Shown: positions 1,695 to 25,500 of the stretch, piece after piece
Position numbering within the stretch: position 1 is the first letter of the stretch
How the letters are laid out: the number at the start of each line of letters is the position of its first letter
From: Phoronis australis
Taxonomy: Eukaryota > Animalia > Phoronida
Assembly: GCA_002633005.1 (NCBI GenBank)
Contig: NMRA01000133.1
Location: forward strand, 490,627-554,626
Length of the DNA: 64,000 nt
Reading direction: 5' to 3'
Program-made: the position numbers and the translations under genes
Notes under the pieces: model-generated
What the model was told of the DNA's origin: nothing
Seen by the model: only the letters and a program-made list of their open reading frames with translations
The model's database searches: none

Positions 1695-2552
1695 AAGTTT
1701 TCTTCAGGAATGAAACAAACCATGGGATAACAATACTAGACTAGTATTTAATCTGGCAGTGACAATAAAGCCAGGGCTAAAAATTTGTGAAAAATGCACT
1801 GGGATAGCAAAACTTCCAGGAACAAGCCACATGTCATTTACCAGGTTGGCGAGGAGGTAGTCTCGCCCGTCAACAACTAGCGACAGATACTTGCACTTAA
1901 CCCTGGTGTATTGCACTCCCAAACCCAGGAAGTAAAATGACAATAAGTACCTAATAAATACCTGAAAATCATAACATGTTAATTAATAGTTTTATCAGTG
2001 GAAGTTCAAATTGGCCACAATGCCAACGAGCTTGTAAAACCTGGGATATCATGATAAATACATACTTTCAAGAGTTCATACTTATCAGGCTAAAATTACG
2101 ACTGTTCAGGCTAACTGTCAACAATATCTTCCAACAGAACATTTAAACTAGTCAGACAAAGGGTGACACTTTCAGTCATTTATTTACGACACCAGAAATT
2201 TCAAATTCTCTGATGAAACATTTTCAGTTTGATTTTCTTTCAGTGTCTTATTGTGTCATTTTGTGACCCACCAGTCTCTTGGTCCCGCTCTCTCATCGCC
2301 CTTCACACCTTGCCCTTCCATGGCTTTCTCCCCTGCCTGACATCTGTTGGCCAGATTCTAACTCACAACATGCAACATTTGCAGAAGAAACAGTTGACAA
2401 GCTGACTCTCTTCTATGTCAATGCACGATCCACAAGACCTTCAATTGCACTACAGCAAGATAGGATCATCCAAGAAGCTGACACATACCTTAGTAAAGAG
2501 CACATGCTCCTGACTAAAGTTTTGTTCAGGAAATACTCTCATCACAACTGCC

Positions 2553-2780
2553 ACACTGTGGTACCTAGTCTATACACTGTGGTACCTAGTCTATACACTG
2601 TGGTACCTAGTCTATACACTGTGGTACCTAGTCTATACACTGTGGTACCTAGTCTATACACTGTGGTACCTAGTCTATACACTGTGGTACCTAGTCTATA
2701 CACTGTGGCACCTAGTCTATACACTGTGGTACCTAGTCTATACACTGTGGTACCTAGTCTATACACTGTGGTACCTAGTC
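2553..2780. repeat. Minisatellite, 21-bp unit (ACACTGTGGTACCTAGTCTAT), about 11 copies
   Basis: Near-perfect tandem units; source of the YTVVPSL pseudo-ORF. Confidence 0.95.
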
Positions 2781-3379
2781 AGAAGTCTATACACTTGAGC
2801 TCCACATTCCTATCAGAGCTAAGTATTCTGTGGTCTTCACACCCCTGAGTTATCATAAATTCTGCACACACAAGCCCAAATTGCAAAAGAGGCTAAAACA
2901 ATATGGCTGACCACTAAATGGCTAAGGCATCTATTACTGTTACAATAATATTGCATCGTTTTGTGACCTAAACCCAGCCAGGCATTGCATGTGACAGACG
3001 TGACACAAACATTATTGTTGAGCTTGCAGTTGAAAATGACAAGACTGCCAAAAATAGTTTCACTAAGAAACAACCCTTAATTCCATACCACAAGGGCCAT
3101 ACCAACACTTGATTAATTTTGTTTCTCAATGAAGACCTACATGGCAACTAACTCTAAACCACAGCAACTCAAAGTCCCTGCTGGTCACCATCATTCTCGT
3201 CACCTTTGTCATCGTCATCATCTCCAGTCATTATCACATAGCCTTTAAGACGGCGACCATCACACATGGGTTGCTGGCCACCACATGAAACAACCCCAAA
3301 GAGGGACTAAACCATGTCCTTAACTTTTCACCTCATATGTCGACTCATGTAGGCACTGTTTGGCCTTTATATTACTATG

Positions 3380-4517: not shown

Positions 4518-7500
4518 CTGCAAAACAAGATGGAGATTAAACTTTTATTTAGTCACTAGGAAGGTCATTGAGCAGACAATATTACTTTTCTTACAGTGAA
4601 TCAGCTTGGATGATATTTTAGCACAAAACGTGTCAGTGACAAACCCGAGAAGATACTCTGGCTTTAATGAAACAAACTTATGTTAATCAAAACAAAGTTA
4701 AAGCAGCAACACGGTTCTATGTGTTAGAATTGTTAGAGCCAACATGGCGCTATGTGTTAGGATTGTTAGAGCCAACATGGCGCTATGTGTTATCATTGTT
4801 AGAGCCAACATGGTTCTATGTGTTAGCATCATTAGAGCCAACATGGCGCTATGTGTTAGCATTGTTAGAGCCAACATGGCGCTATGTGTTAGCATCGTTT
4901 GAGCCAACATGGTTCTATGTGTTAGCATTGCTAGATCCAACAAAGAGATTCCGGACACCCCTGCTGAAGATGAATAGCGCTCGAACTAAACCCATGGCAC
5001 TAAAACGTTTTTACACCAAAGAAGACCGCTCCAACCAACAACTTCAAAGATGAGTGAAACCTGTCACAATGCAGGCAAACTTACTTTGTATCTAGTTGAA
5101 TCAAGTTTGTATCGACAGGCACATTGTCATCAGGGTTACTAGTGGCCACCACACTAGCTGGCCGACTTGGAGGGGGTGACTCTGGTGGCTTAGGATGGGT
5201 CAGCGTGAACGGCAACTCCACAGAGAGGTCACTGCAAAAACAACAACAGACAAACATTACAACCTTATATTTGCTTTAAATCCAGTCAGTCATAGGGTTC
5301 TTCCTCCAATTATGATTGATGAAAGGAGCCACAATCTCTTTTAAGTCACTCGTAAGTTTTTATCCTCTAAGACCCTACTTAAACCTTACTTAGAGCTTAC
5401 TTAAAGAAGTGATGAACCTGCCTACTGCCTAACAAGACTGATCTCGACTCGTTCCTTATACGAATTTGAAGTGGAAGAAATGACAAACAATTCCAACTCG
5501 AGACCACGCGCAGCGCATAAAATGACCACTCTGGTCACTCCAACTTATTGACCCTATCTCAAGCAGTATGGATGACAAAAGTTGGACGTAACGTGCCCGT
5601 AATTTGAGAACCAGGTTGATGCTCATTATTCAGTGGAGAAAACTGGTTCTCAAAATTCAGCAATATATATCCGACCATTACCGGAATGAACTGTTAGTTC
5701 TACCAAAGGCCAGAAAGCACTCCTCATCTGTGTACGGAACAAGTTAAGATCGATCTTAAAATGTTAAGTAAATGAACACCAGAAGGCAATCTTGACAGAT
5801 ACCAGGTTTGTAGCTGCACAATATACCCCCCATTCTCCTGCCATTGTCAATATTTCTAATATGACACATACAGTAACAAAACCCACATTTTGAATGAGAC
5901 TGCGTATTGCCATGATTTTGGTCAGAACTTATTTCTGAGATAGGGAAGAGCTGACAATTGTTGATACTAGCCACTAAAGTTGAACGTTAATTGGCTTTCA
6001 TTTAAAAGCTTTTAATTAGAGGACCTCCATGTGACAAGTAGTCTTGTGAAATAAAAAATACGACAAATTTGTCCTTTCACACTTCTTCCGGTTCCATGAA
6101 TGTGTGGACAGCTAATCATCTGTTTTAGATGTTTTTATTTCTCTCTTGACTAACAAGCTTCTTGGTGACCCCCAGTATAATAGATACAACAACTACCATG
6201 ACCCGTGGAGAGGCTAAGTAGATACACTATCTTGTTCGATATCTTCAGATTTCAAGATGGCCACCCAACTACCACCCGAAGCGGATATGATTACAAAAGA
6301 ACTCATGTGCGACATGCTATCCAGGTACGAGAAAACACACGACATCGAGGTTGAACATCTTCAAGTGTCAAGAATGACTAAACCGGGTGAGTAACAAACT
6401 TCTTCACATGATAATTTCTGTCGCTCGTTACTCGAATCACACAACTGGAAATCATCAATTTGTTTTCATCACAACTGTTAATGTCACTACGTCTTTCGAA
6501 AACAATTTACAATATTTTAAATTTGAATTTTGCAGCTAAAATAACCCATTGAGATTACAAATAAAAATATCCATAAAACAGTTCTACAGCAAATCACTTC
6601 TTATATGGCACATTACAAAAAATTATATAAAAGGCAAATTCATGCAAATAGCCAACTGTTGCTAATTCATTTGACTAAATTTTAGGAAACTATTTTCACT
6701 TTATTTAGGTTAAACAATTTATGAAATGGATTTCAAGCACGTTAGTTAAGTTGAATTTGTGCCCTAATACATCTCATTCACCACAACTCCAAACATTTTC
6801 AATGTTAACTGAATGTAATAAGAATCCATTTTTGGAGGTGCAGTACCACCTAAAATGGCTGCACTGTAGTAAGCGACAGCAAACTACTGCATTATGGGTA
6901 CTCTCTCAACTGCTGCCACACAGGCAGGAAGTTACAAAGTATTTGTTTTTGTGATAACTTTCCACTGACGAAGCTCATTATGTGTTCAAAATTGTTGAAC
7001 GCAAAGTGACAAGTTATCTTTAATGTTTTTTTTTGTAATTTAAGGTGAGCACATTGGAAGCTGCATACTGCGAGTGTGCGTAACCACTAAGTCATTGGAC
7101 GGTGTCAGCAAACAGCATCACTTGGTCGTTAAGACTAACTTCACTGACCCAGTCCAAGCACAGAGAGTGACAAATAACCTAATGTTTGTCAAGGAGATCC
7201 AAACCTTTAAAGAGCTCCTCCCTGCTGCAAACAGCCGGATTCGGGAGATAACTGCAGGGCAAGATGGGGTCACTTACGCAGTGTCAGTACCAGAGATGGT
7301 TGGTTACAGACTGGGAGAGGGGCATACTAGCATGTTGGCACTGAAGGACCTCAGTACAGAGGGTTACAAGAAGGTGAATGTATCGGAGAGTCTAGACATA
7401 TGTCACTGCAAGCAAGCCATGAAAGAAGTGGCTGCCTTCCACGCCATTGGCTACCTGCTGAAAGATGGGGTCACAAGGGAGGCGTTTCTGACGAGGTATC

Positions 7501-10500
7501 CTTATCTGGGCGTCTTCAACTACACCAGCCAAGAGTTCATTGCACCTTTCATGGACATTATCCGACTCACTTCAGACAGTCTTGTGGAGTTCATTCTGAC
7601 CTCTGACCTTAGTGAGGACCTCAAGCAGCAGGCTGGCAAACTACGTCTGCACGACCCTGTTGCAGAGCCCAAAAGCTGCAGTGCTCCAGTAGAACCGTTT
7701 GCAACCATATGCCTCTTGGACTTCTCGACAAGGAACATGCTGTTCAGATATGACGATCAAGGGGTGCCAGTTGGGGTCAAACTTCTCGACTTCCAGACTG
7801 TATATTATGGGTCGCCAACATTCGATTTATCAATGTTTCTCTATACAGCCTGTTTTGACGGCATCAAGCAGGACATATTGGACGACTTGCTGAGCACGTA
7901 CTACAATGCTCTAGCGGATAATTTGAAAAAATTGAGAGTGCCACTGAAGTTCACTTATCAGGAGTTCTTCAAAGAGTTCATGAGAACACGACTATCCGCT
8001 CTGTGGTACGGACTGATGACACCTCCCTTCTTTCTCATAATGGGTGGATTTTTGGCTAGAGATGAAGTGAAAGATCCCACCTCAGGTGGACCAGCTAAAC
8101 AATTGGCTAAAGCATTGAGTAGGAGTGTCTATGCGCCATTTCTGTTAGACACATACAGGCTGCTGTCAACATATAACTTTTCAGTGACCTTACAACCTCT
8201 TTAGAAGCCAAAGGATGCATGGGAGATAACTTTACTTTAAAACGATTCTAAATCATTCTTTTTACTATTACGATCGATTTTAATTGTTTGGAATCGAAAG
8301 TAGACAAGATTTTACCAATTTTTACAAAGTTTTGTACTTTTTTGAAAACATTGTCTTTTTAAAGCTGTACTTCACCCAGTCTAGTTGGCTAAAAACAAAG
8401 ATGCAACTTGGCCTTTTATTCAAATAAAATTTGTCTCATGACATTCCATACCATGATGGGATTCTATTTCTGATAACAACGAGAACAATGAAACCATCAA
8501 CGACTTGAGCAAACGCATAATAAGTTAGAGTTCATTGGGGTTGGCCTACTCTAAAACCGTGAATTTGAAAATGTCACTGAAATACATTGCCTGTGAATTT
8601 GAAAATGGTCACTGAAATACATTGCCTGTGACTCCAGTTCCCGGCTCATTTCGGAACAATTCAAGATCAGGCGAGCGTGTTGATGCTTTTAAAATCGTAT
8701 TCAACAAAACTGGGTCCAGCAAGAGGCTTTTGACATTCCCAAGAATACCTCGATATCTTTTTTATTGTTTTATTCTACAACGGCAGTGGGTGCACCCGGT
8801 GGTGAATCAAGTGCGTGAGATATGGACGAAATGGCTGTACACTTTCTACATCAAGGTACTGTCTCTCTGGTTCCAAAAGGGATCTTTATTCAACATTTTT
8901 ATCATTTAAATGTAACCCAGTAATATACATAGTCTCACCTCTTACGTTTTTGTGAAATTTAGTTGTTAAGCTAATGATTCATTTTGCCAGGACTTTCCCC
9001 AGTTTCCCCCCCACAAAGTATAGAATCAAGAGCCTAGTCAGTAAATGTTCGGAATATAGTCCCATGGGCCCCACCTCTGCAACCACAATTGAAAATTTCT
9101 ATGGTTTGTAAAGTGTTCCATTCTCAACAGAGTCAACAAGTGTCAAGTAAAATGAGAAACAGGACCAAGTGTATTTCAGCACATTTTTGCCTTAAACAGT
9201 ACAACATACAACAAACTTTAGGTACCATGGCATGGTAACCTCTCTTAACTATACAAGTTGGTCCTCATTACCCGTCCAAGTCACATTTTCCCTCTATATG
9301 TCAAGGCTTGGAATTTTCAGCGGAAACACAGATTTCCGCTTTTTTCTTTTATTCCCTCTGCGTATTTCCGTTATATTTCGGATTTGCCATAAAATTATCG
9401 CGGCAAATTAGTTTCTCACCATGGTGTTGCCAATGACTCGAAAAGCGGAAACTGCTCTTTATGTTTCGGAGGAACGAAAATAGTAATTGCGAATCACAGG
9501 TGCTCGAAATTTCCTGATGACTCGTAACCATATATCAGAAATATGTCTTCTTAGTGATGAGTGATGGCAGTGGAAATCGAGGAACACATAAATTCAAGCG
9601 CCTGTGCCTGGGATACCGTGGTTCATCAATGGCGTCTGCATTTGGTACAAAATCGCGGTGACAAATAGTGCGATTCTGTGGTCAAAAATGCGAGAAGTAG
9701 ACAGAATATTTCGTGGAAAAAGTGGATAAAAGAAACGGTCAATGTCTTCACAAACAACATAAGTCAAGGTTTGTGCTCTGTAAACTCTGAGAGAGGAACA
9801 ATTACGGAGTGCGTGGCCGAGTCGCCTTGGACAAAGTTGGAGTCAGAGGACCGACTGAAAACGATAAAACACTAGAAATAACGGTTCCTGAAAGGAAATC
9901 CAACCGTAACACGTTATTCGTTGGACTGGAATCGTGAGATGTGAGTGATGTATGTCCAAGCTTGGGGTATTAGTCCAATTTTCACTATCCTTATTTATTA
10001 TCTAAATTATCAACCTGTTTTAATTGTATCTTTGTTACATGTATTTAATTATTATTTTACTACTTTATTGTATTATATTACTGTTTTATATTTTGTTGTT
10101 GAGGGTCCTCTTGGAAAGCAGTGCTTTCAATGAAAAGGCCACCCTCATTTTAAATGTTACAATAAACAAATGAAAAAATAAAATTAGAAACATGCAAGGC
10201 AATGACCAGTGGCTGGTTGCATGAAACAGTCCCAAATAGGGACCCAACTAAGGTCCCTAAGTCTTTTTGCGTATTTGTGTCTTTATGGACTCACAGATGC
10301 AATATTTTTCTATCATTTCATCCTCATTATGAGCTCCTCTTTGATTACTGACATTTTCTAACAATTGAACTAAAAACTGAGCCCAGAGTTCATTGAAAAT
10401 AAATAGGGACCCAGCCCTTAAATTGGGGGTGTTGCATGAAAAGATCCCGAAAGATTTTCGATAATATTGACAATTCAACGTAGAATTCACTCTTGACTTG

Positions 10501-13500
10501 TATCAAAGTACAAAATTGACTTAGTAGTGAAACTAAAACAATTCAAGAAAGGGCAATCGATGTTTTCACAAGTCCAAAAATACGCAGTAGATTTAGGGAA
10601 CTTAGTCGAGTCCCTATTTGGGACTGTTTCATGCAACCGGGCAAAGGAGACCAGACATTCTAGAAAGTCTGATTCTTTGTTGCTGACGTACCTGGTGCCC
10701 AGAAGTCCCAGAATCAAACGAACTTTGACTTTGTACTGCACCACAATGCCAAGATTTTCTTTCTGACTAGGATCTTGGATTCTGAAATGACAGCATACCA
10801 CATGTGAACAGCATACGACCTGTGAACAGCACTATGTAGATGGTGAGATTCCAGCCAATATTAGGAAACATTTTAAACATGGCCACTTTACCCATGAAAG
10901 AAGAGACACGTTACTGATACTTTCCTTTAATAAATTTTGCAGCAAGAACGGATTGTAATATCAAATTTATCGATACAATTTTAAAATAAGGTTCCATAAA
11001 AATGGCTTAGGGTTTCATTCTGGGGCTTGGCTATTCAAAACCCATAGGGGAGTAATAAAATAATCATCTTCTCAGCCAGGACTACAAACCCTCTTTTAAT
11101 CTGTGTTTAGTTAGTCCAAGTGGGACACTTATATGAGGGCTGTTCCAGTAAAATCCATGTGGGAGGGGGGGACGGCAGTAGAAATAAAAATTCATGGGTG
11201 GTGGTCTTCAGAAAAAAACTCAAATTATGGGTGGTCATTCCTGTAAGAAGTGATGCATTAAAAATGGGTGGTATTTTTTGATCTGTTAACCTTGACAGGT
11301 TGGTTAATTCAGCCAACACATCTCCAAAGAAATCAAAACTCAAAAAATGCGATTGGCATATATCCCAACTTATCCCAATACAAAAAAGCCCATATTGCCA
11401 GTGAACAGAGTGCAATATGTTCACTAAGCCATTAATCAAGTCATGGGCAACTTGATTTGAACCAAGTGCTTGTCTGCAGTCCTATTGAATTGAAAAGTTA
11501 TGCAACACTAAACTGGTGTTAACACATATAAGAAAATTGATGATTTTTAAATAAAAAGTATGAGGAGTAAGATAAACAAGTTCCAATATTCACTTGACAT
11601 AGAAGTATAAAAGAGTTTGTGGAGACAGTTTGAGATTCATAGATCCTTATAATTGAAAAAATGTTCATTGAAATTATAGACACATGGTGAACAGAGACAC
11701 CTGGTGGCTGCCAAAAGTATTGTTCACAGGCTACTTTAATTTTTGACAATATTGGACAAGACAACTAGTTCTTGTCTGTCAATCATCTAAGTTCTTAACA
11801 GGTCCTCCTGGAGGCAATTTGTTTGCAAGTGTTGGATTTTATATTTTAACCTATTAAAAATAATTAAAAAATTATGGGTCATGGGTTGGAGAAATAAATG
11901 AAAAATATGGGCGGTGGGTACGAAATAAAAGTGCCTTCCCCCCCCCTCCCATACAGATTTTGCTGGAACAGCCCTGACTAAGAGCAGGTTTCACAAAGAA
12001 CTACTTTCACTGATCTTGCATGTCAATTTCAAAAGGCCTATTGTGTATGAAAGATGTCCATGACTTACAACCACAGGCAAAATGCTAATCCTCTATCTGA
12101 ACAAGTTACCCCACCAAAACCCAAAATGGTTTTCACGTTTTACACAAGTGTTACCATTGATTGAACGACATCTCTCTTGGCATACTCAGCAGGCGCATCC
12201 CACTAAGCCCATCACAACAGATCCAACCATGAAATGGAACAGTCGTTTAAACTGAGATTTTCAACTAATTCTTTTAAATACTGAATAACTAGTTACTATT
12301 TCTCCTTACATGGTGGACGATGCCAGACAGGTGTCCTCGTGCTTCAACTTCCCGTCCAAGGCTAGCCCCCTCTTGTCTCTGTTCTTCTCCAATAGAGGCG
12401 TCAACTCGTAAACTTTACAGAAGCCTACTTGATTAGCATGAATGGAAAACCCGTCCCTGAGAGTAGTAACGTCAAGATGAGGTAGGAGTAATTAATAGAG
12501 GACACAAGTGGAAGAGCAAACCATTCTCCATAAAATTAACAGAATAAGACCGTTGTTTGATACACATGCATGAATATTTGTCAAGTAAGTGGAATCTGCA
12601 GGGGGTCCGGTTAGCAATACATCTTGTTGCACAGTTGTAGTTTAAGTAGAACTGATGTACATTGAAGGCTTTTAAGGCCAGGACAACACGGAATTCTGAC
12701 AAAGTATGTAACTACAATGATAATCAAAGAGTAACAGCTCCCTGTAACTTCTTACACTTCTAGAGATATTCTTGTGTTAAATTGTGACTTGGGTACTGAA
12801 ACCTCGCACTTGAACGACATAAAAATCAACCTTACACAACAACAACTTGTTTACAAAATGTAGACGAAATAGGAAAAAAAGTGAACACTATTTGAGTGAA
12901 GTGTGCGTGTGGATGTTGCTTCCAATAAAGGTTCATGTGGCAGTATACCTAGCACAGACTAAATTGTAACATACCATTTATATTCGTTAAAGAAATAAAC
13001 CAACACCCAAAAGAAAATCAAAGCTAATGAAATGGTATCCACAAAAACTTCGTTCCCTTTCGTTTGTGTCGAAGCTGTATGAAAGATTGGTAGCCTAAAA
13101 TGGCTGCGAAACAATCTTTCAGCAGTGTGACATTGCACGATTGTAGTGCTGACATGCAACAGAATATAAGGCAAGAGCAATGCAAAGTGATGGTAGACCG
13201 TCAACAGCAAAGGTTCCAGGAGTCAATTTTACAAGTCAACCCATCAAATTGATCAACTTTGAAATAACTGTCGGACAGAGCACACCTTGTTGAGGAACAA
13301 CAGAGATGCTGCTGAGATAGTCACATACAACGGAAAAACAGAGTGTTGGTCCATTCCTATCTTATACCCTTCAAAGGTAAGGCAATTTGAAGCTACTATA
13401 AAAATTACATGTAAACAAGGGCTTGAGTACTTAATACGTTAAAACTCTGTGTATCACTTTCTAACATTTCATCACACTAGGTCAAAGTGTTTTGACAAAA

Positions 13501-16500
13501 TCCAACAGTAAAAACAAGAGTAAAATGATCAACACCATGTGCGAAGACAGTTGTCAAAAATGACTGGTGCTGAACTTACGTACTTTAACCATTTACCTTT
13601 AAGTGAAACTCAGTTAAAATCTGATACGTGATTTGAAAGATAATCAGCAGCTATGAAATGCTAACTCAAAACCAAACATGGGTAACAGGAAGTACTAAAT
13701 ACTGGATCTACCTGAACATAGCTATGGAATGCGTCAAGTATACTAACTATGTCAAGACATTATGTTAAGACACTTACACACTGAGTTACCCACAGACAAC
13801 AACTAACAGGATGAAATGGGTTACAGGAACTGTTTAGTCAGACCTGTGTGAAAGCTGGCTGATGGTGGCACATCCCTACCATAATCTTTGTGTTGAGGAA
13901 ATGAATAGATTTGGAAATATTGTCAAAACTTAACTACAGAGCACCATATGCACTATTCTCCACACTGCAGGAAGGTACTGTTCTTAAAATATTTTACTTT
14001 TTCACATCTTCACTATTATTTATGAAATTTTTATCTCAAAGGTGGTAAAAATAAATGTGAAATAATCTATATGAAACGGAACAACTCGGTTGCCGCACTC
14101 AAATATGTACCTAAAGTACATTATTTTTTTTGTATATAATAAATTAAGTCCAAAAAATCTGAATACTTCTTATACAAGAGCAATGTGTAGCATTGAAATG
14201 CGCCCACAACTGCAGTGCAAACAGTGTGCATCAAAGGGTGTTTATTAGAATAAAAACAGTCCACTAGATAATACAGAATACGGAAGGTGTCATTGTCTCT
14301 CGAATAGAAAGGTATTTGCTAAATATCATCAAAGACAGAGACGAACACGAAAAAAATGTCTTTAGGTGGCGAAGTTGGAGTCCAAATGGTTTCTAGGTGT
14401 CACAAAATTGCTTTTAAGCACTTTGAGAGATAACCACAAAAATGGACAACGGAACAAGTGAGATTTTGATCATATGTCCACAAAAACGTGTGGGCACATA
14501 ACACACCATTGCGCAATGTAAACGTTGTTCTGTTCCACTGAATTACACAGCAGACAAAACAGTTTACAAAATACTACAAATTAAAAACTTCTGATCAAAA
14601 ACACCATCTGTTATATATCACTAATTAGAAAAGGCTTACATCGGAGGCCAAGCTTGTTTTAAGCTACGAAGCAGCATAAATATATTCCAATGATAAGTTT
14701 CAGCATGATCACCAAAAACATGTGTTGCACAGACACATGTACAAAATAAAAGCAGTACGGCTAGAAACAGGATGAAGAAACAGGATGGAAATATGGAATG
14801 ACAAAATGCGTCGCTGATGAGAGAGACTCAATAGGAATGCATTATTGCAAACTGTTAACATAAACTTTAATTTAATGGTCGTGTTAAATACTTTAATATC
14901 TAAAGAAAAATGTACATGGCTATCAAACTAAGACACTCCATCGCTAGACTCCTATCTCTTGTTAAGACCTACTGAACAAAGCTTTCAACTATTGATTTTG
15001 TCTTCAGGCCCTTGGCAGTCAATGGCAGGGAGTAAATTTATTAGAACTATCTATCACCAACAGCTAAAACCAGAGTCTATTCTCTCAATAAACTGAAACT
15101 CACACACCAAAAAATTTTCATTTAATGAAAAGGGTTTTAGTCGCAGCCTAATATTTTAGACAATGCCCCTACCGTTGGAAATCGGGAATTTTTTCTGCAA
15201 TCTCTGTTGCCAAAGTTGCACGTTCAAGCCTTTTAACAAGGCAGCAGGGCAAAGGCAGTAAACAAGTAGTTTTGCCAACTTACTCGGAGTCACACTCGGC
15301 CACCGTACCTTTGTACTGTGCGGTTGTGAAGAGAGAGATATCAGCAAACTGGCGAACTGGATTAAGAAGAGAAACCAACAGTTTAAACGTACATGACAAC
15401 AAGCAGTAACCACATGACCCCTGTGTCCCCCTGCAAACTGTCCCGCCTCCGTGATACATCGGGCCAACACATCACTCCCACGTACAGAGGGCTCACAGAG
15501 AGGGAGAAAAGATTTAACCGCAGTTTATTCTCACAAGTCTGTGTTGAGCTGTAGCGTGTAGAGTTCATGCATACAACATGTCTTTTTGTGGAGATGTACA
15601 GTAATAAAGGCTCCCTAATTTCCTGTTACGCAATCCACGATTTCCAAGCAAACTTGATTTATAATTGCAGAGAAATATATTAAGTTAATGGGCTTCAAAA
15701 TAAGGATGTGGTTTCAAATGGAAACCTATTATTCCTTCTATCAAATTTGCGAGAATGTCACCATTATTCTGCAAACAGGAATTTACGCAGTACTTGGAAA
15801 CTAGGGAGAGTTTGCAGAGAAACAATACAAGGAACCCAGACACCGTGACAAGAGACATGGCAACCAGAGCATGCTGAGAACCAGTGAACTGTATACAGCC
15901 AGCACATACTCCACTGAACATATACACAAGGCAAGCAGGAGAAGGGGTAGTCTACCCACAGGCCACTAGTACTCTACCCCTGACAACAGAGGGCATGTGT
16001 GGTCAGTGACACTTACTCAGATTCCCTCTCCTCCACCGGGCACTTGTAGGTGGCGCTACTAAACAGTATGATGTCGGCTGCCTGGATGACTAATAAAGGG
16101 CCAATGGTTGGTAAAGATTTCATTGGAAAACAGCAGGCACAGCACAGGTATAACTATTGGCAGTTCCAAGCAACACCACGTGAATATGTATCAATACACT
16201 ACAAACCATGTCATGGTTACATACAAACATTGTCATGGTTACACAAAATGTTGAGACTGCTATAGGGTAACGCACTTCAGAAAGTGAAAACTGGACACAT
16301 TCACAGTTAAGGAGAAAAATAATGCAGTGGAGAGACTAAAAGTATTCTGGCCAAATCACAAAAGAGATGGGCGCTATCTCCAGGGCATTCTTCTTACTAT
16401 GCTTGTTCCCACAAACAGGATTCTTTGTTTGCAATATAAAAATGCTGTGAGAGAAAAAAATGTTGGTGGTTCTTGAGAAAAAGCACTTGTCCGCCATGTA

Positions 16501-19500
16501 GTGAAATGGAAACTATCAAGGAGAACACGCGCGTGGTTAGTGGAGGAAAAAAATTGATTACACTGAAATCTGGCCATTATATTACATGGCTTGTCCAATA
16601 CTGTTTTCGGGGTGGCTATAACATCTGATCAATGTCCATGGTATTTTACAAAGTCTGACCTATGGTCTTAGAAGTTCAGCCACAGAATTTATAAGCCAAC
16701 CCAATGAACTGTTTTTCAAACATGGCAGTGCATCATGTGATAATTTGAACATTGCCAATTGGCTGATACGAGTTGATAATCTTCGTGCTGAACAGTCACA
16801 CATTTCAAGTAACGGGGAATTATGAGGCACTCCAACACAGTGATTGTAATAATACGACCATTGGAGAGGTATCAACCCGTCACCACATTGAATTAAGAAA
16901 AATCGGGAGGGCTGCCAACCTATTTGACACAATTTAACCTCCACGCTAAAAATCTGCATTTTGCAAGTGAAAATGAGTGTGAAATCTAATATTTTTTGAA
17001 ACTTTTAAATTTCATTCATAACATAATATTCCCAAAACAAGAAAGCTCAGTTTCAAATTGCCTTCAACTAAAAGGGGTCATTACAAACCAGGCTCATCAC
17101 ATCAATGTTTTGCAGTTGGCATGGTCAGGCACAGTGGACCATAGCAGAGCAAATCGCGATATCCCGTGATCCACACCAATGTTGTCAGCCATGACATGCA
17201 GCGAATTCTTTTGAATGCTTTCTACGAGTAATCTAATTCCTAGGGGTGTTTATCTCCAAATATCAGCTCTCGGCATTCTGACATGACTTTTGTAACAGAT
17301 GACATCCCACAATGCACGGCTATTAAGTGACGTTTTCATTCACAAACTTTAACTGCCCAATCACGAAAGAGAAAGCCCAAAATGCAAATTACTTTCACAC
17401 TCTCTCGTACTCAGTACAAATTTTATAGGTGGGATTTCGCGCTCTTGATCTTGAATATTTTCGTCATCTACTGGATTTTTCTGCATCATTCTTTGCTGCT
17501 CTCATACTTCAAAATATTGACACATTTAAAAATATCTTTAATTTTTAGCCGATAGTCTGAGTCAAGAAAATTTCAAAAACACGCATGTAGCATCTTAAGA
17601 CCACACAAGTGCAGAGAGTCCTGGTCAATCTATAACAGTTGGCAGCCCTGATTTGATATAAAGTAAATACATTTATAAGAAAGTCAGGAAATGAGAGCAA
17701 AATGCAACTTCTGAAGGGAAAATAGGTTGATGGGATATTTTCGCAAATACCAAAACTTCAAATGCCTTTGATGACTGGAGAAGACAACAAGAAACTGTAG
17801 TGATGGCTCACAACATATGTTGTGGAGTTGTATTCGTATTTCACAGCATTGGTTCTAGAGGTGTCTATTTTGTCAGTTATCACACAGGGACACTAAAGCA
17901 TCCTGTAAACAAGGAACTACCACGTCTATGCAGTTTTTAACTTACTGTCACTATTTGCTGCAGGATAGCATAGCACAGGCACAATACATTGTACGTCCAC
18001 CAAACACAGCTACTTGTTGGCTGACTTCTCAATGTGACATCATGGTGTTCAGTACTGAAAACTGTTGTAAGCAACCTCATTTCCTCCACCAGTAATTTTG
18101 CTTCAATGGTCTCCAGTCATCGTAAGTCATTTAAATCCAGGATTTGCCCAAAAGAACCGTACTTCTTGTTTTCATTCGTCCATAAAATGTAAACAACTTC
18201 CTGACCACCCGAAAACGGACACCAAAGTCAAATTAAAATTCACAGCAGCTACACTTTCCAAAAGTATTTAAATGAGATCCTGATAAATAATACACAACAC
18301 ATACGATATAACCGCACCACAGGTAAATACCGCTACCTATCAACATACCTGATATCTTGATTTTTTTAATGGTTTTAGTTGTGTTGTTGTCCACTGTCAC
18401 ATTCACGTTTATCTTTTCTCCATGGTAGTATTTCTGCAGTTACAACAGATGGAGGTGAATAACAAAGCATTACAACGTTAAATAATGCAAAGTGAGGCTG
18501 GTCATGAATTTCCAAGAAAATGATGGAACACTAATTACTAAACAATTAACAGAACGGTAGAGCTCTCAGCTCAGTAATTATGCACTAATTAAGCATTTTA
18601 ATACTATGAACCACTCAAGGATACAGTCAAGGTGTACCAGAAACACGAGAACACTTTCTGTCGAAAAACCAATGGCAGTCAAAATGCACCTAGTTTAGAC
18701 AGTCAAATGCAAGTTGATAACATTTTGCTGCAGACCTGCTGACACTCGCCACACCAAGTTGCAATTTTGTAACCTGAAGTTACCCATCAACTTTTTCATG
18801 ATTTTCATTGAGCTTCGTGATTTCTGAGGTTTTTCATGATGAGCAAGCAGCATGTAGGCTCAGTCAAGCTTCAGTCAGTCCACAATACAATGTGAAAAGG
18901 GCCATTTTGAGAAACCATACAAATCATATGAACCATTCCTTACCTCCTTGTCTAGAGAGGCCTCCAGTTTCAGCTTGCCAGGGCTCATCATGAACTCCTT
19001 GGTGGCCTCCGACATGGGTTGGGGTGCTGCTTCTGTGGGGGCATAGGTCAGCTTACGAATGGCCAGGCGCACAGAGTTCCTAACAGAGAAAGACAAAGAC
19101 GAGCCTCAAATCATATATGCATGCACGCCTGTTACATTCAAGGGCCAGATGTTACCAAGAAAATTCAGAATGACAAAATAGATATAAACACAAAACGTAT
19201 GGAGAGTGTTGTAGATGAAGTAATATCCCACGAGACATTCTGTGTATCGACCGAGATCTCATACGTGGAATAATGTTGACCTGGATATAACTTCATCTAC
19301 GCCATTCGAGGTACGTTTTGTATTTGTCCCATACGCTTCAAATTCTGAAGTTTCTTTCATTTTTTCTCCAAATTTTTAAATAGCTCACCCTGACTGTTCA
19401 CATGGCGGATCACATCCTATATGTATGTACTTGCACGTTATGATACAAGTTTTCTCTAGTAAAAGAAAGAGTTTCAAATGTAACGATTAATTACTTGAAA

Positions 19501-22500: not shown

Positions 22501-25500
22501 AAAACTGGGAACCGTACAGAGAATATATAAGTGAGTGTACATCACGCTGTCCAACACGAAGTGCAGTCGTGTTTTCAATCACGTTTGTACTACTGAATGG
22601 CTGGAACCTAACTATAGAAGTCACAGACAGCAAGAGTCTCAACAGCACACTGTCATTATTCTAAAACTGTTTTCACTGTCATTGGATACCTTTGTTACCA
22701 CCTCTAAAGTGTACTTACCCCTACTATTCATATCACCACCAATAAACCCGGCCCCATCGATTAACAAACTTTTGATTCAGATCACTTACAGCTATAAAAT
22801 TGGTACTACCTTGTTCCTTACTCGTACTAGAGGCAAAGTGGGGAAGTGCTAACAATTCTATTATTGGTCAAGATCACGCACGATATGTTGAATTGTCACG
22901 GCGTGTCACTGCGCGACGAACATGGTCTCACGCACTACCCAACTGTCTGTTCTTCAATATCCCAAAAATCATTCCACATTTGACTATGAAAAAATTTTAA
23001 GATGGAAAATGGCCTTAAACTAAAGTTATTTTTGACGACAGAAAGGCGTGTTCATTAACCCATGAATTTCTCTCCACTTAGATCTTGTAAACTGTGGATA
23101 AGTCAAGATAAATGCTTGGCTTAACAAAGGCATTTCTACAGACTATTTCAAGGGACAAACACAATGCCTGACTGGACATAACAAGTCCCTTGTTACAGTT
23201 ATTGTGTTTACTCTGTGAAATGAAACAGAGAAACAACTGATTCCCCTTCACTAACCATGGTCGCCCTGACATAATGCTTTCTAGCACTTTCTGGAGTTAA
23301 CTCTTAATTGTTGTAGATTGTACACCAATGATGACTACAATAATCTGGCGAAACTAGGGCACCTGTGTTTACACTTGAACTCTGTCAGTCCATTACACAT
23401 CCAATGATCATATACCTGACACTGGTAATGAAGCGTTCTATTGATATGCTGGCCAGACGTTTATCTTATTGCCATCACCAATTTTTGTGTCTTGCTGATG
23501 AACAAGGTATCTATTACCATTCAAATGCCTTGTGGGTAATGTTTATAAGAAAGCAGATGTGTTTGATCAGAAGACAGGACATCTGATCAGAAAAAGACCA
23601 GTTGCTTAAAACAAACAGATGTTCCATCTGCCATCTTATGAGTAATTACCAAAGCACATATGTGCAAAATGGGTAACTTGCTAGCCAATCGAGTCATTGC
23701 AATGTAGGCTTGTCATAGTAAGCAGGTAGATCTGTCATCTTGAGGTCAGATGTCATGGAGACAGAACAGACTTCAGATGAGCATTTACAAGTGAATTTAG
23801 ACAGCAAATGAGACATCTGATCTGCCTTCTTTCTGATCAGACGGCATGTAAACATGGTATCAGCAATGTTAAAACTGTTGAAGCTGAGTATAACAAAACA
23901 AGAACACGTGACACCTGCAGTAGTAAGGAAATTGTCCACCTTTGTGAAGTCCTTGTACATTTCATCTAATAACTTTTCAACTGTTCGTTTTCCACTCGTA
24001 CAAATATATATCTTCTGAATCCACGATGACTGAAATTTTTTGAGCAATTTAAATCTAACTGGCTATCAGGTTTAAAAGTGAGGCAAGACAGCTAGGAAAA
24101 GTGTGATTCAGTTTAGTGCGCAATTCACTTGGTGTAAAACCTCTCTGCCTATAAACAGTCCACGCAGTGCCACTCACCTTGCCAGTGTCCCCTGGTGCTG
24201 GCTGAAGTGTGACAGAGGCTGGTGAGTTAGGGGGTAACTGAAACCATTTAAAGAACACACCCATGACAACATTTATATTCCATTTCTCCTGATCTGAATG
24301 ACTTGAGGGCCCTCTTGGAAAGCAGTGCTATCACTGAAGAGGTCACCCTCATTTTAAATATCACAATAACAAATAAATAAATAAATAAATAAACTTTCAA
24401 TCATTATTTATACTAGTGTTGAGTAACTAAATGCGTAATGCTTCGCCTTGTTTGTGAATTTCATATAACTGTAATACCATACTTAAGTTGCCAAGAGTCA
24501 TTTCTGGAATTATTCGGTTTACACTTTTCAGATCCTCCCCAAAATGAAAGGAAACGGACGTTTCATAGTCTCTGATAACGTGGAGTAAAGGAACGCAGAG
24601 TGTGATCTGAAACACATGCAAATCTCCAAATCAACAATGTCTCTGAGTAAGCGAAATCCATTTTCCCCACCCGGAATCAGTCAAATTTTATCACAATTCT
24701 TAACAGGTGCGTCGTCTCACCTGGAAAAAGAAAGGATAAGCATTGGGTCCAAGCTTCTTGATGAGTCGCTCCTGAAGTCGGGTCAAAGGTCGCTTGTTTT
24801 CCTCCTCCACTGGGTAAACCTGCATCGAGGCCAGGAACAAGTCCTTCCTGAAGGTAAGGCCGAGAACATCCAGGTCCTCACGGCCGTAGCGGAACGCGGC
24901 CAGCACATGGGCAAACACCTTGCGACCTTTCAGGTATTCAGGGTCAGCTAAGACCACGCCATCTGGAATCACAGCAGGAGTCTCTGTTATATGTCTAGTT
25001 TAAATCATTCCAAAAGTTCAGAATTAAAAGATTTTAGGCTTCTACTGAATCAATGATTAATAAACCATTAAGCCATTTTGAAAGTAATTAACTGAAAAGG
25101 AATACCTTATGGAAATGGAAATAGCCATTAGGGTGTGCAAAGGTAATACTTATTTGAGTTCTTCACAAACTCTGCAGAGAACTACTGCTTCTTACCACCC
25201 ACAACCACAACACAGTCTCGCCTTTCATAAAAAACAACACACTTTGAAAATAATTGGCAGACAATGAAAACTTTGTTGAAACTAAGGCGCATGAGATCGA
25301 CAGATAAAATTAGTTAGTGTCAACCATACTTACCCCATGCCTTGGTGTTAAATTTCACAATCATGTCAAGACATGTCCAAAAGTATTATTATACAAAGGG
25401 AATTTGTCAAGAAGTAAAATAGCTCACTGGGGTGTCCAAGTAGTTGAGTGAATCTGAAAATCCCAGTTTTATCAAACGTGTGGTCGCTAAAATGTTTGTT

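Follow-up and report, generated by a model that had tools for sequence, protein, structure and literature searches.

A predicted helix spanning the intron between two either-or exons of a beta-arrestin gene may be incidental to their exclusive splicing

Long-range pairing within introns is known from clusters of alternative exons in insects, where docking/selector systems are described for Dscam exon 6, 14-3-3zeta, Mhc and MRP1 (PMC6071210). In human ATE1, which carries the either-or exons 7a and 7b, the element R3 pairs either with R4 or with the competitor R1, and all these elements are conserved across vertebrates (Kalinina et al., PMC7797038). Steric hindrance in mutually exclusive splicing is attributed, in the treatment given in PMC6071210, to an intron that is too short in its primary sequence, and a frame shift combined with NMD is presented as a standard guard of such splicing (PMC6071210; PMC7797038). 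An initial annotation of the DNA studied here proposed a steric block that is imposed by an RNA helix, and took this kind of block to be established for some insect clusters. The sections of PMC6071210 and PMC7797038 on which we draw do not bear out that precedent, as the insect clusters they treat use docking/selector competition, and in the accessible portions of the review PMC11802352 no mention of structure-imposed steric hindrance in splicing was found.

The locus lies on the minus strand of the window, by which we mean the whole 64-kb stretch of DNA that was analysed. Its similarity to known proteins identifies the gene as a beta-arrestin gene and points to a source animal of lophotrochozoan type. 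The Pfam domains Arrestin_N and Arrestin_C were found in the open frames 24703-24999 and 18236-18439, respectively, and tblastn with full-length arrestins as queries gave thirteen coding segments that run from ~33.9 kb down to 4.4 kb. The top named protein match is a brachiopod beta-arrestin-1-like isoform with 86% identity across one exon; the protein collection searched contained no near-identical match. The part of the gene around the alternative exons is composed as follows.

18349..18433, minus strand: exon 8, 85 nt, constitutive, upstream of the alternative pair (RNA-seq joints 18433/18944, 16089/18349 and 15356/18349; tblastn)
16017..16089, minus strand: exon 9a, 73 nt, minor alternative, encoding (V)+24 residues (AG/GTAAGT borders; RNA-seq joints)
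15357..16016, minus strand: intron between 9a and 9b, 660 nt (crossed by a single DNA contig with 0 differences)
15284..15356, minus strand: exon 9b, 73 nt, major alternative, encoding (V)+24 residues (RNA-seq joints)
12310..12456, minus strand: exon 10, 147 nt, constitutive, downstream of the pair (RNA-seq joints; tblastn)

The 660 nt originally given for the intron between 9a and 9b agree with these limits. Exons 9a and 9b are a tandemly duplicated pair of homologous exons, equal in length and phase. Both have AG acceptors and GTAAGT donors, and they share 14 of 25 amino acids and 43 of 73 nucleotides, with 9b being the nearer of the pair to the canonical arrestin sequence. No similarity was found between the flanks of 9a and the flanks of 9b. 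Between exon 8 and exon 10 there is no third copy of exon 9, as only 9a and 9b are arrestin-like among 40 open AG...GT candidates. The segment encoded by 9a or 9b presumably includes a receptor-facing loop of the arrestin C-domain.

Use of the two exons in RNA was followed with three stranded RNA-seq runs (X7, X8 and X9) under the same species label and with X5, a contig set that we guess to be RNA. Reads and X5 contigs were mapped on 10650-19100 and covered the four joints as follows.

Joint 8-9a: 1 contig in X5 at depth 14.9; 2, 2 and 8 reads in X7, X8 and X9
Joint 9a-10: 1 contig in X5 at depth 14.9; 1, 2 and 0 reads in X7, X8 and X9
Joint 8-9b: 1 contig in X5 at depth 31.9; 30, 14 and 33 reads in X7, X8 and X9
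Joint 9b-10: 1 contig in X5 at depth 31.9; 37, 19 and 51 reads in X7, X8 and X9

Reads across 8-9a make up 6-20% of the 8-9a and 8-9b reads taken together in the three RNA runs, and the 9a share is 6-32% across all samples. No 9a-9b joint was found within 15250-16120 in runs X8 and X9, where at least 3 reads were needed and the 9a depth was ~8-12. Exons 9a and 9b are spliced either-or, with room for rare co-inclusion at this low 9a depth.

In run X9 the joint 8-9a is crossed by 8 reads and the joint 9a-10 by 0 reads, and a depth of ~6-7 continues into the first 100 nt of the intron. This unspliced depth, in which the counts are small, suggests that the donor of 9a may be used slowly.

The exons themselves offer an explanation for their exclusivity. 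Joined in silico, 8-9a-10-11 and 8-9b-10-11 are both open in frame. As 73 nt do not make up whole codons, double inclusion and double skipping shift the frame: 8-9a-9b-10 meets a stop 13 nt into 9b, and 8-10 meets a stop 29 nt into exon 10. Each premature stop has at least 3 exon junctions downstream, and the double-inclusion and double-skipping forms are therefore predicted NMD substrates. Since double inclusion gives an early stop, the missing 9a-9b reads are expected without any helix. Frame and predicted NMD would thus account for exclusivity in the absence of a helix, provided that the aberrant forms decay as we infer.

The intron between the exons carries two complementary arms, one close to each of its ends, together with two further elements that take part in its predicted folding.

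15982..16005, minus strand: 5' arm of the helix, at intron +12 to +35, beginning 11 nt after the 9a donor; found once in the window
15943..15981, minus strand: local hairpin right 3' of the 5' arm, with 13-nt arms and a 13-nt loop (inverted repeat I6; in the MFE fold)
15417..15446, minus strand: G-rich stretch that shares 11 nt with the 3' arm and pairs with 15797-15826 at -31.6 kcal/mol
15407..15427, minus strand: 3' arm of the helix, stopping 50 nt short of the 9b acceptor; found once in the window

The duplex of 16005-15982 with 15427-15407 was confirmed as first annotated, in its sequence, its coordinates and its spacing to the splice sites. Its estimated ~20 bp were reproduced by RNAduplex, which returned 20 bp with 2 G-U pairs, one C/U 1x1 mismatch, a 2-nt and a 1-nt bulge, and an energy of -23.6 kcal/mol. 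Within the 6.1-kb pre-mRNA from exon 8 to exon 10, neither arm has a better partner than the other arm, and the next-best partner of the 5' arm is a site inside exon 10 (12351-12380, -23.3). When all 4265 windows of the 64 kb were scanned against the 3' arm, the 5' arm alone paired with it at -23 or better. The MFE fold of the intron alone includes the helix, and the centroid retains ~8 of the helix pairs. On the antisense strand the helix reaches -21.6 compared with -23.6 kcal/mol in sense, and because the two energies are nearly equal there is no sign of RNA-strand-specific selection. RNA depth in X8 and X9 is 0 over the 3' arm and 2-7 over the 5' arm, the latter without differences.

Dinucleotide-shuffled arms pair with a mean of -14.5 (sd 3.5), and 36 of 2000 are as good as the real ones. 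Placement was assessed by letting the first 70 nt of the intron pair with its last 110 nt in 30x30-nt windows, where the best duplex reaches -26.3. Among 102 shuffled introns 3 match this end-to-end duplex, as do 2 of the 384 other 660-nt segments taken from the window (mean -16.5, sd 3.2). The 11 other introns of the gene all fall short of it (-9.1 to -19.2), by at least 7 kcal/mol. The picture for strength is different. In a 30-nt window scan the window pair that contains the arms, at -25.1, takes rank 7 within the intron, and the best duplex anywhere in dinucleotide-shuffled introns has a mean of -25.3 (sd 2.1, n=102). There are 101 window pairs at -22 or better in the exon 8-exon 10 pre-mRNA (6.1 kb), and the stability of the whole-intron fold has a z of -1.23, with 4 of 20 shuffles as stable. 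The initial annotation had pointed to the energy relative to shuffled controls as the measure of its helix; in such controls the strength equals the mean of the shuffled best-anywhere duplexes, and the end-to-end placement is reached by few. The strength of the helix is ordinary and its end-to-end placement is unusual, with a chance of roughly 0.5-3% that needs several-fold relaxing, since the annotation was free to choose among three introns and several configurations.

Part of the 3' arm is also claimed by a stronger partner. The -31.6 pairing of the G-rich stretch is the strongest 30x30 duplex in the intron and is matched by 1 of 102 shuffles; it contains the gapless inverted repeat I1 (15424-15444 with 15804-15824). 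Several pyrimidine tracts in the neighbouring introns are further partners of the same stretch (15417-15446). The helix has a predicted occupancy of 0.53 when the intron is folded alone, 0.18 when both exons are included, 0.00 when 1301 nt are folded, and 0.18 when 2.6 kb are folded with a span limit of 800. As modelled, the helix does not appear robust, given that its occupancy depends on context and that a stronger competitor overlaps its 3' arm.

Two mutually exclusive pairings that share the 3' arm region could be understood as a means of tuning the ratio of 9a to 9b. By tying up the vicinity of the 9a donor and the sequence 12-24 nt upstream of the 9b branch region, the duplex would slow the use of the 9a donor or weaken the anchoring of U2 at 9b, and the G-rich stretch, by pairing elsewhere, would provide a switch. 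The 3' arm sits where contacts of the U2 snRNP upstream of the branch point are expected, which we count for such tuning, and the range of the 9a share among samples (6-32%) and the X9 reads left unspliced across the 9a donor are also consistent with it. However, the read counts are small, the G-rich stretch pairs with so many pyrimidine tracts that the competitor may be non-specific, and the distant introns show no analogue. We regard tuning of the ratio as decidedly unlikely.

The steric block that was proposed at the outset asks more of the helix. By looping out ~570 nt it would hinder assembly of the 9a-9b spliceosome, so that 9a must join exon 10. The geometry agrees with the proximity of donor and branch point that had been suggested, as only ~23-35 nt would then separate the 9a donor from the likely branch region of 9b. 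This likely branch region consists of A residues at -26 to -38, 12-24 nt from the end of the helix; the position of the branch point is uncertain, and the sole strict yUnAy match, at -6, is too near the acceptor. A path of ~23-35 nt from donor to branch point falls below the spacing that is generally required, and exons 2 and 3 of alpha-tropomyosin are an example of steric hindrance by a short intron. Besides its geometry, the unusual placement of the helix, the reciprocal best pairing of its arms and its presence in the MFE fold of the intron argue for the block. So does the absence of a 9a-9b joint among those listed in the RNA runs. Against this, the missing 9a-9b reads are expected from the frame shift anyway and were sought at a low 9a depth (8-12 reads), and the helix, with its occupancy between 0.00 and 0.53 according to context, faces a stronger competing pairing. 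Seven introns from other lineages show no analogue, and five of these, at 86-210 nt, are spliceable yet unstructured. In yeast, helices that bridge an intron usually aid splicing, which we also count against a block. The sections of PMC6071210 and PMC7797038 used here contain no precedent for a block imposed by a helix. On balance we consider the steric block unlikely.

Comparison with other animals separates the history of the exons from that of the helix. Several lophotrochozoan proteins, which come from a brachiopod, two nemerteans, a scallop, an annelid and a slug, depart from the canonical RQ[FY]ADICLFSTAQYK form solely in this 24-residue block. Two scallop proteins are 94% identical overall, with their differences mostly in the 24-residue block. 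A metagenome scan with exon 10 yielded 80 loci, 13 of them with two tandem 73-nt copies of exon 9 and AG/GT borders; these 13 tandem-pair loci represent 7 distinct intervening introns. Judged from these comparisons, the exon pair is old and widespread, with brachiopod, nemertean, mollusc and annelid sources in addition to AT-rich animal contigs.

An intron-clamping helix was detected in 0 of the 7 distinct orthologous 9a-9b introns of other lineages. In two mollusc-like loci, where the intron measures 559 and 1319 nt, 18 and 31 of 100 shuffles, respectively, equalled the end-to-end duplex, and between these two loci no block is conserved at intron +12 to +35. Five distinct introns from AT-rich loci, 86-210 nt long, are no more stable when folded than their shuffles (z +0.07 to +1.94). 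In a run from another organism (X6, share 0.05) 0 contigs matched 15250-16120 at 80% likeness. Across the distant lineages that were compared, the intron-clamping helix does not seem to be part of the conserved architecture of the pair, and if it works here it would be a lineage-specific addition. The claim in its full form, that the helix makes the 660-nt intron effectively sub-minimal and thereby forbids 9a-9b splicing in a pair conserved across several spiralian lineages, is rather unlikely. If true, a structure-imposed steric block would be a new way to enforce an either-or choice between exons; on present evidence the helix is a candidate for such a role. The firmer result is the context, a beta-arrestin gene with an old pair of alternative 73-nt exons; in the literature searched, including the available text of PMC7553075, no paper describing the arrestin 9a/9b exon pair was found.

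An inverted repeat at the ends of an intron may also have its origin at the DNA level. An old non-autonomous DNA transposon of ~600 nt could have inserted into an intron of ~61 nt, with the arms as its terminal inverted repeats. The arms bound 599 of the 660 nt and leave 11 + 50 nt outside, the orthologous introns of one other lineage measure just 86-107 nt, and near-equal stability in sense and antisense is expected of a DNA-level inverted repeat. However, the intron and both arms occur just once in the 64-kb window, and inspection by eye revealed an ACTG shared near the ends but no clear target-site duplication. A 7219-nt DNA contig also runs through the intron, and because this single contig spans it, the intron is not a young high-copy repeat. 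A transposon relic is very improbable in our estimate; it is an account of origin and is compatible with the helix being incidental.

Our best explanation, to which we give about an even chance, is that the helix is a real but incidental or dispensable lineage-specific inverted repeat and that exclusivity rests on the reading frame and predicted NMD. The length of the exons (73 nt) would set exclusivity in the productive mRNA, and the aberrant forms would be removed by NMD. The unusual placement of the helix, the reciprocal best pairing of its arms and its presence in the MFE fold speak against this reading, as does its location, an intron between two alternative exons being the expected site for a regulatory structure. 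Direct observation covers the pair of exons, the use of one or the other in RNA, the consequences for the frame and the complementarity of the arms with their unusual placement; to this we add by inference that the helix may be dispensable.

Two further arrangements and a search for known RNA families gave no lead. Incompatibility of U2 and U12 splice sites was rejected on comparison with the U12 consensus: exon 8 has the donor GTATGT, exons 9a and 9b both have GTAAGT, and every acceptor is AG. Bridging, in which the region after the 9a donor would pair with exon 10 and loop out 9b, was likewise rejected: 23 of 200 shuffles were as good in the window, and in six other loci 71, 187, 9, 157, 76 and 93 of 200 were, which amounts to no consistent signal. 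The Rfam search returned one sub-threshold match, ceN54, whose 19.8 bits fall short of the gathering score of 60.

Compared with the described systems, the locus shares with short-intron steric hindrance, as presented in PMC6071210, the idea of a first donor and a second branch point that lie too close to combine. It differs in that the intron here is 660 nt in sequence and the distance becomes short solely if the helix forms. With the docking/selector systems of PMC6071210 it has in common long-range intronic pairing in a duplicated cluster of alternative exons; as described there, such systems need one docking site, at least two competing selectors and loops that contain exons, whereas the helix here is one pair with a loop of intron only. 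A docking/selector system for 9a/9b was therefore rejected: over 64 kb just one partner of the 3' arm reaches -23 or better, the 5' arm pairs with the 3' arm and with the site inside exon 10, and no such partner occurs upstream of 9a. The nearest published topology to the 9a/9b helix, going by the part of PMC7797038 that deals with it, is R3-R4 of ATE1. There, too, the either-or exons are homologous, and R3-R4 lies inside the intervening intron with one arm upstream of the second exon. In ATE1, unlike here, the competitor R1 lies upstream of the first exon and resembles R4 (PMC7797038); an ATE1-like competitor upstream of 9a was rejected, the best partner of the 5' arm there reaching just -11.8. 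With the guard by frame and NMD, as set out in PMC6071210 and PMC7797038, the locus shares exons of equal length that are not a multiple of 3, and early stops on double inclusion and double skipping.

Judged from sequence comparison, the beta-arrestin 9a/9b exon pair is old. The 24-residue block encoded by this exon is the sole difference between arrestin isoforms from a brachiopod, nemerteans, a scallop, an annelid and a slug, as seen by protein comparison, and tandem copies of the 73-nt exon were found at 13 metagenome loci. A literature search found no published description of the pair. The proteins and loci listed for it, together with a further exon copy, are as follows.

Window 15284-16089 (-): 9a/9b exon pair; arrestin proteins P0001, P0014, P0016, P0043, P0047, P0054 and P0120; metagenome loci L011, L027 and L055-L068
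L011 7269-7335, matching block L027 9375-9498: third exon copy, 67 nt

This third copy occurs in mollusc-like loci, in the intron downstream of 9b. It encodes (V)QQITRLHLYKSTEYKSNVAYMS between AG/GTAAGT borders, and it is conserved between L011 and L027, at 79% over 124 nt.

Canonical-type and 9a-type exons are also found at separate loci, as on two contigs of one metagenome (L007 and L037) and at L033, L035, L038 and L043-L045. Since the exon types lie apart and each such locus has its own exon 10 following its exon-9-type exon, this arrangement suggests two paralogous genes rather than an exon pair within a single gene.

In X9, one of three RNA-seq runs carrying the same species label, reads joining exons 8 and 9a continue unspliced into the intron that follows 9a (window 15940-16029, -) at a depth of 6-7, a small count. 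No joint between 9a and exon 10 was detected in this run, where counts are likewise small, and the 9b donor was spliced in ~90% of cases, again on small counts.

Other features lie within the arrestin introns. The 11-12 intron holds an intronless open frame of 386 aa on the strand opposite to arrestin (window 7044-8201, +), which Pfam places in the ecdysteroid kinase-like family (EcKL, E 1.4e-47). Part of the 10-11 intron (window 10932-12059) is covered by RNA at depths in the hundreds on either strand and carries numerous variants, joints inside the stretch and loose ends. This part probably represents a repeat family that is transcribed, and it may be the source of the small word share in the run from another organism (organism B). 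Elsewhere, at window 2514-2795, a 7-residue unit recurs over ~280 bases in open-frame translations, and the stretch therefore seems to be a tandem repeat whose unit is ~21 nt long.

In arthropods, the beta-arrestin isoforms P0017/P0019, P0081/P0086 and P0112/P0115 differ in the equivalent of exon 10, which follows the 9a/9b-type exon, suggesting that arthropods possess a separate alternative exon pair.
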